From a virus, in IMG/VR virus record IMGVR_UViG_3300011507_000009, positions 1 to 6,858 of that record: a stretch of 6,858 nt of DNA; one strand, written 5' to 3'. Below, piece after piece: positions 5,705-6,352 of this stretch (the stretch's first letter is position 1; each line of letters starts with the position of its first letter). Both the position numbers and the translations under genes were made by a program. The notes under the pieces are model-generated. The model saw only the letters and a program-made list of their open reading frames with translations, searched no databases and was not told where the DNA came from.

Positions 5705-5959
5705 TCACTCGTACAGGTCAGACTGTCCGGTTTTCTCAAGAAGCTGAGCAGCAGAGGCGCGGGCCTGCTCGATGATGTGGCGAAGCCGACGAATCTCGGT
5801 TCGCTGGCTGTCGATGACTTCGTGCAGCTCCTGATTCTTGCGGTGCAGGTCGATTGCATCGAATGCGGCCATTCTGAATGCCTTGCTGGCAACCTTCTGG
5901 CCGTAATGCATCTTGAGGCGGTCGCCTTCCTCGTTCGTGACGTCGAATTTGATCAGCAT
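5705..5959 (-). CDS. 84-aa protein: RHH-like N-terminus plus predicted coiled-coil C-terminus (Mnt-like architecture), function unknown
   Basis: It lies in the frame of track ORF 5705..6037, and the internal ATG 5959 has AAGGAA about 10 nt upstream. The sequence is MLIKFDVTNEEGDRLKMHYGQKVASKAFRMAAFDAIDLHRKNQELHEVIDSQRTEIRRLRHIIEQARASAAQLLEKTGQSDLYE. The region upstream of M27 in the track ORF is Arg-rich junk. Confidence 0.6.
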   Translation of the reverse strand: MLIKFDVTNEEGDRLKMHYGQKVASKAFRMAAFDAIDLHRKNQELHEVIDSQRTEIRRLRHIIEQARASAAQLLEKTGQSDLYE

Positions 5960-6015
5960 TTTAGTACCGTTCCTTTTGTCCTGGTTGGTTCCTCGACGAG
6001 GAAAACAGTACCAAA

Positions 6016-6231
6016 TCAATCTTCGCCGAGAGCCCAATTCAGGCCGTCACGCAGAGCATAAGCAACAAGGCCATAACCAACATTCGACTCAATGTGAACG
6101 CCGCCATCAGGGCCAATGATGCGGAACTCATAACTCCCATTGTCGCCGTCCCCGAACACCTCAACGACGTGATGACCATCGACGTCGATACGGTGAAAGG
6201 TAGTAACGTCATCAGTAAACTTAAGTACCAT
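6016..6231 (-). CDS. 71-aa acidic, beta-rich protein of unknown function
   Basis: It lies in the frame of track ORF 6016..6309, and the internal ATG 6231 has a strong AGGAG 7 nt upstream. The sequence is MVLKFTDDVTTFHRIDVDGHHVVEVFGDGDNGSYEFRIIGPDGGVHIESNVGYGLVAYALRDGLNWALGED. Confidence 0.6.
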   Translation of the reverse strand: MVLKFTDDVTTFHRIDVDGHHVVEVFGDGDNGSYEFRIIGPDGGVHIESNVGYGLVAYALRDGLNWALGED

Positions 6232-6265
6232 TTTAGCGCTCCTGGTTTCGTCCTGGTATGCGCTT

Positions 6266-6352
6266 ATGGTACCAAAACGGAAAGAGGGCAGCAAGTGTTT
6301 TGGTACCATTTTTCATCCTGGAAGATCTTGCTCGAGGAGCAAAATGGTACCA
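6266..6352. promoter_or_regulatory. Cluster of three TGGTACCA palindromes forming two nested perfect inverted repeats, a candidate operator/iteron array upstream of the 71-aa ORF
   Basis: ATGGTACCAAAAC (6266-6278) pairs with GTTTTGGTACCAT (6297-6309): 13 bp perfect, 18-bp spacer. TGGTACCATTTT (6301-6312) pairs with AAAATGGTACCA (6341-6352): 12 bp perfect, 28-bp spacer. Confidence 0.6.

Follow-up and report, generated by a model that had tools for sequence, protein, structure and literature searches.

Why does the palindrome TGGTACCA recur three times within 86 bp of a filamentous phage genome, and which protein would read it? The locus lies in IMG/VR virus record IMGVR_UViG_3300011507_000009, of which positions 1 to 6858 were analyzed (hereafter the window, 6858 nucleotides). 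A preliminary description, made from the letters of the window, had taken the cluster for a multi-site operator or iteron set wrapped around two orphan genes, of 71 and 84 amino acids (aa), and had named the 84-aa protein and a 65-aa protein (p65) as candidate binders. We find that the three copies belong to an array of six phased sites that is strictly associated, across related filamentous phages, with the gene for the 84-aa protein (p84), and that overlaps the predicted promoter of that gene. The six sites probably form a phased operator array for p84, which would act as an autoregulating phage repressor; we hold this interpretation, which draws on comparative sequence evidence, with moderate confidence.

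Six phased sites in the window

The palindrome occurs four times in the window, as compared to a mean of 0.04 in 200 dinucleotide-preserving shuffles, none of which reached four, bearing out the enrichment that the preliminary description had proposed to check. The copies lie at 1878-1885, 6267-6274, 6301-6308, and 6345-6352, the last three inside 86 bp, and the two perfect inverted repeats reported among them, of 13 nt (6266-6278/6297-6309) and 12 nt (6301-6312/6341-6352), are both present. The copy at 1878-1885 is probably unrelated to the array; it falls within the pIII-like open reading frame (ORF), beside a Gly-rich repeat region (∼1680-1860), in a segment to which no relative aligns. Three degenerate copies, AGTACC on the plus strand and GGTACT on the gene strand, are found at 6224-6229, 6007-6012, and 5963-5968. 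Their placement at gene boundaries, remarked on earlier, is real: the first overlaps the ATG (6229-6231) of the 71-aa ORF (p71, 6016-6231, minus strand) and the last is 3 nt upstream of the ATG (5957-5959) of p84 (5705-5959, minus strand). The middle copy is the one misplaced in that account, lying just downstream of the p71 stop codon (6016-6018) in the direction of transcription rather than before it.

What had been overlooked is the spacing. The six site centers (6348.5, 6304.5, 6270.5, 6226.5, 6009.5, and 5965.5) are separated by 44, 34, 44, 217, and 44 bp, a geometry that recurs in relatives. We number the sites S1 to S6 in the direction of transcription, all on the minus strand. S1 (6341-6352, core GGTACC 6346-6351; gene strand TGGTACCATTTT) is the distal site, ∼8 nt from a dif-like hairpin, and homologous S1 sites were found in 37-40 distinct arrays. 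S2 (6297-6312, core 6302-6307; gene strand AAAATGGTACCAAAAC) follows 44 bp from S1, just upstream of a candidate −35 element, and S3 (6263-6278, core 6268-6273; gene strand TGGTACCAT), 34 bp from S2, coincides with a candidate extended −10 element. S4 (6224-6234, GGTACT 6224-6229), degenerate and 44 bp from S3, sits over the p71 ATG, an arrangement also seen in relatives L001, L004, L006, and L007. The other two degenerate sites correspond to the last two sites of the canonical array described below: S5 (6003-6018, GGTACT 6007-6012), directly after the p71 stop codon, is homologous to canonical S3 (gatttGGTAC...), and S6 (5960-5970, GGTACT 5963-5968), 44 bp from S5 and abutting the p84 Shine-Dalgarno sequence and ATG, is homologous to canonical S4.

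Conservation of the array with p84

An initial search with p84 gave 14 relatives, and a profile search then gave 125 clusters of unnamed proteins outside any Pfam family, from the Pseudomonas group or metagenomes; the bacterial genomes that encode relatives belong to Stutzerimonas and Pseudomonas species. We fetched the loci of relatives from IMG/VR (41) and from bacterial genomes (8). In nearly all, GGTACC is found without mismatch at positions of about −128, −84, −50, and −6 relative to the p84 start, i.e. with 44-34-44 spacing, down to 30-40% protein identity. The distinct arrays with 44-33/34-44 spacing number 37-40, many of them related by descent, so that these counts are non-independent observations. 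At the edge of the family, loci with 27% and 30% identity (L089 and L091) still have 44-34-44 arrays, at 1350/1394/1428/1472 and 1372/1416/1450/1494, and a still more distant match (L092) shows a 42-bp unit together with TTGACT-16-TACCAT. Conservation of motif spacing in related phages, which the preliminary description had proposed to examine, thus extends from 100% to 27% p84 identity, and more than 100 related filamentous-phage sequences pair the array with p84.

The canonical four-site array follows the morphogenesis operon and precedes p84. Its order is a dif-like inverted pair, S1 (GGTACCATTTT), 44 bp, S2 (AAAnGGTACCAAA), a spacer of 33-34 bp with a weak −35-like hexamer, S3 (TTTGGTACCATTT), 44 bp, and S4 (GGAAAGGTACCAAAATG) at the p84 start. 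Some lineages (L024, L025, L028-L038, which are of the Pseudomonas aeruginosa type, L046, L047, and L089) have extra GGTACC pairs downstream of p84 (e.g. +344/+399 and +259/+314, with 55-bp spacing) and more sites upstream (−261/−206/−162); because of these extra pairs, p84 is bracketed by arrays on both sides in many phages.

The same association emerges when the search starts from the DNA motif. Two scans were run over 2.9 million viral contigs. The first, for the flanked pair pattern GGTACCATTT-N28-34-GGTACCAAA, returned 40 stretches, three on contigs already known to carry a p84 relative; the 37 new loci were screened with a p84 hidden Markov model (HMM) and 33 proved positive. The four HMM-negative loci represent a phage of 35% guanine plus cytosine (GC) in which the adjacent protein has a p84-like start and architecture (MLVKINN..., hhalign P = 5e-4) and the unit also retains an internal CCWGG. 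The second scan, for three sites irrespective of flanks, returned 52 stretches, with p84 in 16 of the 25 newly fetched loci. The other nine newly fetched loci lack p84. Six, inspected at sequence level, are dense 10-11-bp tandem GGTACC arrays of another kind; L096 has many sites, known as coordinates only; and the match in L111 lies inside coding sequence and is probably due to chance. Tandem repeats starting with GGTACC (e.g. GGTACCGTTTG) and accompanied by no p84 homologue occur in the unrelated viral contigs L097 (1298-1402), L110 (5566-5648), L103 (110-367), L105 (4696-4779), L109 (1841-2049), and L116 (5437-5462). There the hexamer is put to a different, iteron-like use, again in 11-bp register.

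Whole contigs of ∼6.4-7.7 kb have the array and p84 while lacking both a p65 homologue and p71, and encode a different replication protein (Rep). The cis sites and p84 are co-inherited, independently of p65, p71, and Rep type. The proposal of a multi-site operator for an oligomeric binder stands in part: p84 co-occurs with the array in every lineage examined, which is comparative evidence for it as the putative binder, whereas these contigs do not bear out p65, which we excluded as an array binder for want of co-occurrence.

Overlap with the predicted promoter

A weak candidate promoter had previously been drawn over one of the palindromes, and we find it as described. The candidate −35, TTGCTG (6289-6294, minus strand), read from the sequence, is 17 nt upstream of the candidate −10, TACCAT (reverse complement of 6266-6271), which together with TGn forms an extended −10 (reverse complement of 6266-6274) overlapping S3. 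A consensus promoter scan of the window gave no site at the scan threshold; the predicted promoter is instead called from the relative blackswan219-6 (L001), in which the consensus scan yields TTGATA-17-TACTAT with TG, and from conservation across arrays. Among 37 distinct arrays, the S3 core is preceded by T at −1 in all 37 and followed by A at +1 in 35 and T at +2 in 36. S3 alone among the four sites has this invariant T before and AT after the core, and so reads TGGTACCAT; in relatives, −35-like hexamers 16-18 nt upstream of S3 also score nearer to TTGACA than do the equivalent positions at S1, S2, and S4. If transcription starts ∼7 nt past the −10, the centers of S3, S2, S1, and S4 fall at about −11, −45, −89, and +33. 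The putative operator sites thus overlap the predicted core promoter of p84's own gene, S3 as its −10 and S4 on the ribosome-binding site and ATG.

Spacing and inner dyads

Intervals separating adjacent exact GGTACC sites fall within ±1 bp of a multiple of 11 in 178 of 190 distinct cases, with values of 22, 33/34, 44, 55, 66/67, and 77 bp. Such quantization would be expected if proteins in contact with one another bound the same face of double-stranded DNA; hairpins give no reason for it. The 44-bp units contain further dyads. Of 60 distinct units, 56 have CCWGG, as compared to 3.9 expected from shuffled spacers (maximum 11), with its center 16.5 bp from one of the two unit sites, and 6-bp palindromes in the unit spacers number 70 against 31 ± 5 expected; these are GC-rich (CTGCAG, CTCGAG, GCCGGC, and others) and lie near the mirror position. 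In the window, the S3-S4 unit has two CCTGG (6241-6245 and 6252-6256), each centered 16.5 bp from the nearer GGTAC site. The S1-S2 unit, read from the sequence, contains CCTGG (6317-6321), AGATCT (6323-6328), and CTCGAG (6331-6336), and the S5-S6 unit, read in the same way, CCTGG (5980-5984, 16.5 bp from S6) and CCTCGACGAGG (5990-6000).

The p71 cassette and the origin of the window layout

The two genes that the preliminary description treated as equivalent orphans are not so: p84 is the constant partner of the array, while p71 is an optional cassette inserted in it. In L003, rep, p65, and p84 are near-identical to those of the window (93.7% nucleotide identity over 3171-6018), but p71 is absent and the array is the plain four-site one. 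In the window, L004, and L007, a cassette composed of p71 and a distinct S3′-S4′ unit lies between S2 and the original S3, and L006 likewise carries p71 along with degenerate S5 and S6. The original S3-S4 unit survives as the degenerate S5-S6 (gatttGGTACTgttttcctcgtcgagg...ccagg...aaaggaacGGTACTaaaATG), which is clearly homologous to the canonical unit; the degenerate copies stand on gene boundaries because this original pair has survived in front of p84 after cassette insertion. The p71 of blackswan219-6 (L001 5247-5462) is near-identical to that of the window (phmmer E = 8e-43, ∼93% by eye), whereas the adjacent p84 is only 44% identical, so the cassette has moved between arrays. A different small ORF is inserted at the same place in L042 and L043, and cassettes seem to be exchanged at the array.

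Relatives of p71 have ∼75-99% aa identity, and the protein is under purifying selection; 79 distant relatives were found among 1.8 billion representative proteins. Its predicted fold has four beta strands and a C-terminal helix. Foldseek against the PDB gave no significant match (weak ones were PC4-, Whirly-, or PUR-like), and there were no matches in Pfam, PHROGs, or NCBIfam.

The p84 protein

The AlphaFold2 (AF2) model of p84 (pLDDT 92.9) has an extended segment (residues 1-8), a helix (9-19), a turn (20-23), and a 60-residue helix (24-83). This is the strand-helix-helix topology, with the N-terminal strand first, of a ribbon-helix-helix (RHH) protein, except that no strand is called in the monomer, as expected if the strand forms only in the dimer. 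The top Foldseek matches (PDB and BFVD), none of them significant, are NikR (2.1-2.5 Å over 40 columns), FitA, a TCP domain, MatP, HicB, and NikA, together with a phage protein annotated as RHH. We predict from the model that p84 has an RHH-like module whose second helix continues as a coiled-coil-like rod, and that it works like a Mnt-type RHH/coiled-coil repressor, with no claim of superfamily membership. In PHROGs, p84 matches phrog_8031, an entry without assigned function.

RHH proteins touch DNA with their N-terminal strand and with the turn that precedes helix 2. The invariant or nearly invariant residues of p84 are L2 and K4, G20, and S25-K26-A27 where the long helix begins, and, toward the C-terminus, A66, A70, L73, L74, Q79, G80, and D81. 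The most conserved part of the protein is the C-terminal motif ARSAAxLLEKTGQGDL (residues 64-82, ∼5714-5770, minus strand), which exceeds the preceding coiled-coil region in conservation and suggests a docking site for some partner.

Gene callers lengthen p84 and p71 upstream through the array (5705-6037 and 6016-6309; proteins P0001, P0003, P0009, and P0121). The extensions hold WYHF (TGGTACCATTT) and KGTK (AAAGGTACCAAA), their remainder is not conserved at the protein level, and they are artefacts of the translated DNA motif, which accounts for these spurious N-termini in gene calls. A second small protein is encoded between zot (or attP) and the array in some lineages (L041 2199-2468; 77-81-aa genes in L089 and L091); by eye it looks RHH-like at the N-terminus, with a coiled-coil tail (..TPIDLPSRLVDLAKLYAPGRDPSDAVSYVIEDY..), and it may be a second regulator.

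Proposed mechanism and points against it

In the autoregulation that we favor, p84 would dimerize through its N-terminal RHH-like module, and each dimer would recognize a single palindromic GGTACC core through the major groove. Dimers on one face of the DNA helix would be linked by the long C-terminal helix, since the spacings are all multiples of 11 bp. Occupancy of S3 and S4 would shut the promoter, giving negative autoregulation, and p84 would repress its own promoter along with any inserted cargo gene. In the window, the inserted cassette carries the 71-aa gene with its own S3′-S4′ unit, and the original S3-S4 pair persists as degenerate sites (S5 and S6) before p84.

Several observations weigh against this account, beside the shared descent of many arrays. 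The inner CCWGG and 6-bp palindromes are unaccounted for by an operator function; the flanks of a site are not mirror images (AAA-core-AAA or TTT-core-TTT), an asymmetry that a symmetric dimer would not need; and spacings of 33-55 bp are long relative to known RHH operators. A purely self-regulating gene would need some further function, and the conserved C-terminal motif hints at a partner. As to the fold, the AF2 model is of a single chain; the Foldseek matches (PDB and BFVD) are non-significant (E about 1-8, probability ≤0.25); profile searches of Pfam, NCBIfam, and PDB (the last with full-length and N-terminal alignments) gave coiled-coil noise only; and hhalign of the p84 N-terminus with a small, unverified alignment of six RHH sequences gave 1.5% probability. 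Literature searches on the motif, on RHH repressors of Pseudomonas filamentous phages, and on related GenBank records found no description of the array or the protein family.

Alternative explanations

The closest competitors begin with DNA structure. The array might act as secondary structure, in single-stranded DNA or in the supercoiled replicative form, serving as a packaging signal, a minus-strand origin, or a switch, with only a positional or secondary link to p84. The flanks of the sites alternate (S1 x-core-TTTT, S2 AAA-core-AAA, S3 TTT-core-TTT, S4 AAA-core-AAA), so that any two neighboring sites form inverted repeats, each neighboring pair giving a perfect or near-perfect stem of 10-13 bp. 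The viral strand of 6215-6365 folds with a minimum free energy of −24.7 kcal/mol, better than shuffles (z = −3.55), and the array is intergenic after the morphogenesis genes, mostly abutting the strongly folding dif-like hairpin. Against this, in 65 distinct units the complementarity of inner flanks is slightly above a random-partner control at positions 2-5, shows no excess from position 6, and is below the control at 13-17, a pattern indicating that the stems are the sites themselves, with no compensatory evolution for a structural role. Pairing thus barely exceeds the control and spans ∼5 A/T flank positions. The 11-bp quantization and the overlap of S3 with the promoter favor a double-stranded function, and copy number and placement vary (extra pairs upstream and downstream of p84, cassettes) in a way atypical of a packaging signal or origin. 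We consider such a structural role unlikely, and the switch between alternative cruciforms sharing the middle copy, raised in the preliminary description, finds no comparative support: complementarity of paired sites ends at the A/T flanks, and the spacers carry no compensatory signal.

The neighborhood of the array raises another prospect. Region 6355-6465 contains two inverted dif-like sites, with arms TCGCATAAT-N6-TTATGTTAC and GCATAAT-N12-TTATG, and its viral strand forms a long, forked hairpin on folding (−40.3 kcal/mol, z = −6.7). In layout it is similar to the folded single-strand attP of CTXφ, and most relatives have this layout conserved upstream of the array; the window phage probably integrates at dif via host XerCD. 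The array and p84 might be an accessory or architectural element for XerCD at this dif-like attP, or p84 an adaptor for some other partner, autoregulation being a side effect. In most lineages, including P. aeruginosa-type phages with ∼40% p84 identity, S1 lies 3-38 nt (typically ∼8-12) from the near dif-like arm, and the strong conservation of the C-terminal motif suggests a partner interface. Yet in L001, L041, and L049 the array lies beside another ORF with no adjacent dif-like site detected, in L051 the distance is ∼400 nt, and integration of the single-strand CTXφ type is established to require no phage accessory protein. We give this possibility little weight.

Nor do we think it likely that p84 goes beyond autorepression in the following way. 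Besides binding replicative-form DNA, it would recognize the viral single strand once folded, because neighboring sites, being inverted repeats, can rebuild duplex GGTACC as hairpin stems near attP; the invariant C-terminal motif would recruit XerCD, the assembly machinery, or a host factor; gene control would be coupled to integration or to the packaging of single-stranded DNA; and the inner dyads, which lie at 1.5 and 2.5 times the 11-bp quantum, would belong to an as yet undescribed type of wrapped nucleoprotein structure.

Considerably less probable is a centromere-like site, at which p84 would be a binder of the ParR, ParG, or omega type that maintains or positions the episomal replicative form. 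Phased repeats at multiples of 11 bp around a promoter, beside a small RHH-like autoregulator, would fit, as would the dense 10-11-bp tandem GGTACC arrays of other viral contigs; but no partition NTPase gene was seen adjoining p84 in the contexts examined, and the sites are isolated palindromes 33-55 bp apart rather than contiguous direct repeats. We are just as doubtful that a host protein, and not p84, binds the sites. The fixed position of the inner CCWGG and the 6-bp palindromes suggest recognition of more than GGTACC, but a host binder would leave the strict co-occurrence with p84 unexplained, and the geometry is kept in the 35% GC phage, presumably of a different host, again beside a p84-like gene.

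Least credible of all, although the sites do recur in non-coding sequence of a small replicon, is recognition by the rolling-circle Rep (G2P family) of the array as iterons or origin: the array is unlinked to Rep, blackswan219-6 (L001) having the array with a different Rep, blackswan219-1 (L002) having the window Rep type without the array, and many arrays accompanying other Rep types, and a separate conserved element (5336-5404), which does follow the Rep module, makes a better candidate for the origin, so that the iteron half of the preliminary reading is not borne out.

Relation to known systems

A small phage repressor with a multi-site operator is a well-known kind of system; the p84 family and its long-range, 11-bp-phased architecture are new. 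A close parallel to the proposed autoregulation is phage P22, whose Mnt and Arc, with the immI operators, are small autoregulating repressors with palindromic operators overlapping promoter elements; Mnt also has an N-terminal RHH and a C-terminal helical oligomerization region, as predicted for p84. The P22 proteins have no detectable sequence relationship to p84, and their tetramers bind one contiguous operator of ∼17-21 bp, whereas the p84 array consists of four to eight or more isolated 6-8-bp palindromes 33-55 bp apart, one of which is the extended −10. ParR/parC of plasmid R1, ParG, and omega combine, as proposed for p84, a small RHH-type autoregulator with a phased array in 11-bp register flanking its own promoter. 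The parC site differs in its contiguous 11-bp direct repeats and ParM motor; the p84 palindromes are several helical turns apart, with no motor gene seen nearby in the contexts examined.

In MatP/matS, NikR, and FitAB, RHH dimers joined by an extra oligomerization domain (a coiled coil in MatP) engage two separated palindromes, and MatP, NikR, and FitA are among the top, though non-significant, fold matches of p84. MatP differs in bridging distant chromosomal sites, the half-sites of NikR and FitAB are 12-16 bp apart, and none of these is a filamentous-phage module. Among integrating inoviruses, RstR with ig-2 of CTXφ and Pf4r of Pf4 are, as proposed for p84 and its array, regulatory or lysogeny modules with multiple operator sites, but they are helix-turn-helix proteins transcribed divergently from rep. 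That position is held in the window by the 65-aa ORF and in relatives by XRE-type repressors; p84 and its array, in contrast, form a second, separate module beside attP.

The array and p84 thus define a conserved two-part module beside the XerCD attachment site, a phased GGTACC array with a previously unnamed protein family (∼125 clusters), and provide a concrete, easily tested cis/trans pair. The array also serves as an insertion point for cargo genes, the 71-aa ORF being one. Should p84 also act in integration or packaging, this would bear on the choice of temperate inoviruses among replication, integration, and secretion.

The window genome and its other elements

The window represents the circular genome of an inovirus, ∼6735 bp long; its first 123 bases recur at the end as a terminal redundancy (1-123 = 6736-6858), and its major genes are all on the minus strand. 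They include rep (3749-5011, minus strand; Pfam Phage_CRI, E = 1e-49), a G5P-like single-strand-binding protein gene, coat, pIII-like, and pVI-like genes, and a gene for a Zot-type assembly protein that spans the circular junction. An Rfam search of the whole window returned no matches at E ≤ 1. The closest public records are inoviruses blackswan219-6 and blackswan219-1, from bird cloacal swabs, and small P. aeruginosa filamentous prophages; the window phage is an inovirus of the Pseudomonas/Stutzerimonas group. The genome is mosaic: 3171-6468 matches IMG/VR contigs L003, L004, and L007 at 92-98%, and the structural genes match blackswan219-6 at 88-91%. Small filamentous prophages of Pseudomonas and Stutzerimonas have been presented as gene maps only, with integrase and excisionase genes absent (PMC10675462).

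The conserved element at 5336-5404 is ∼70 nt long and contains two short hairpins (GTCTCA..TGAGAC and GTCCACCAT..ATGGTGGAC). It is 87-94% identical to segments of blackswan219-1, of several P. aeruginosa inoviruses, and even of Vibrio inoviruses, the phages that share it having related replication modules, and is a candidate for the plus-strand origin or for another signal in replication. Between rep and the 65-aa ORF, the divergent region (5011-5124) has repeated CGTTAC/GTAAC motifs and a direct repeat (5022-5042/5071-5091). These motifs are likely operators of p65, which in Pfam, PHROGs, and NCBIfam matches phrog_5219 only (an entry without assigned function) and is annotated as “repressor” in Pseudomonas phage 36-2.

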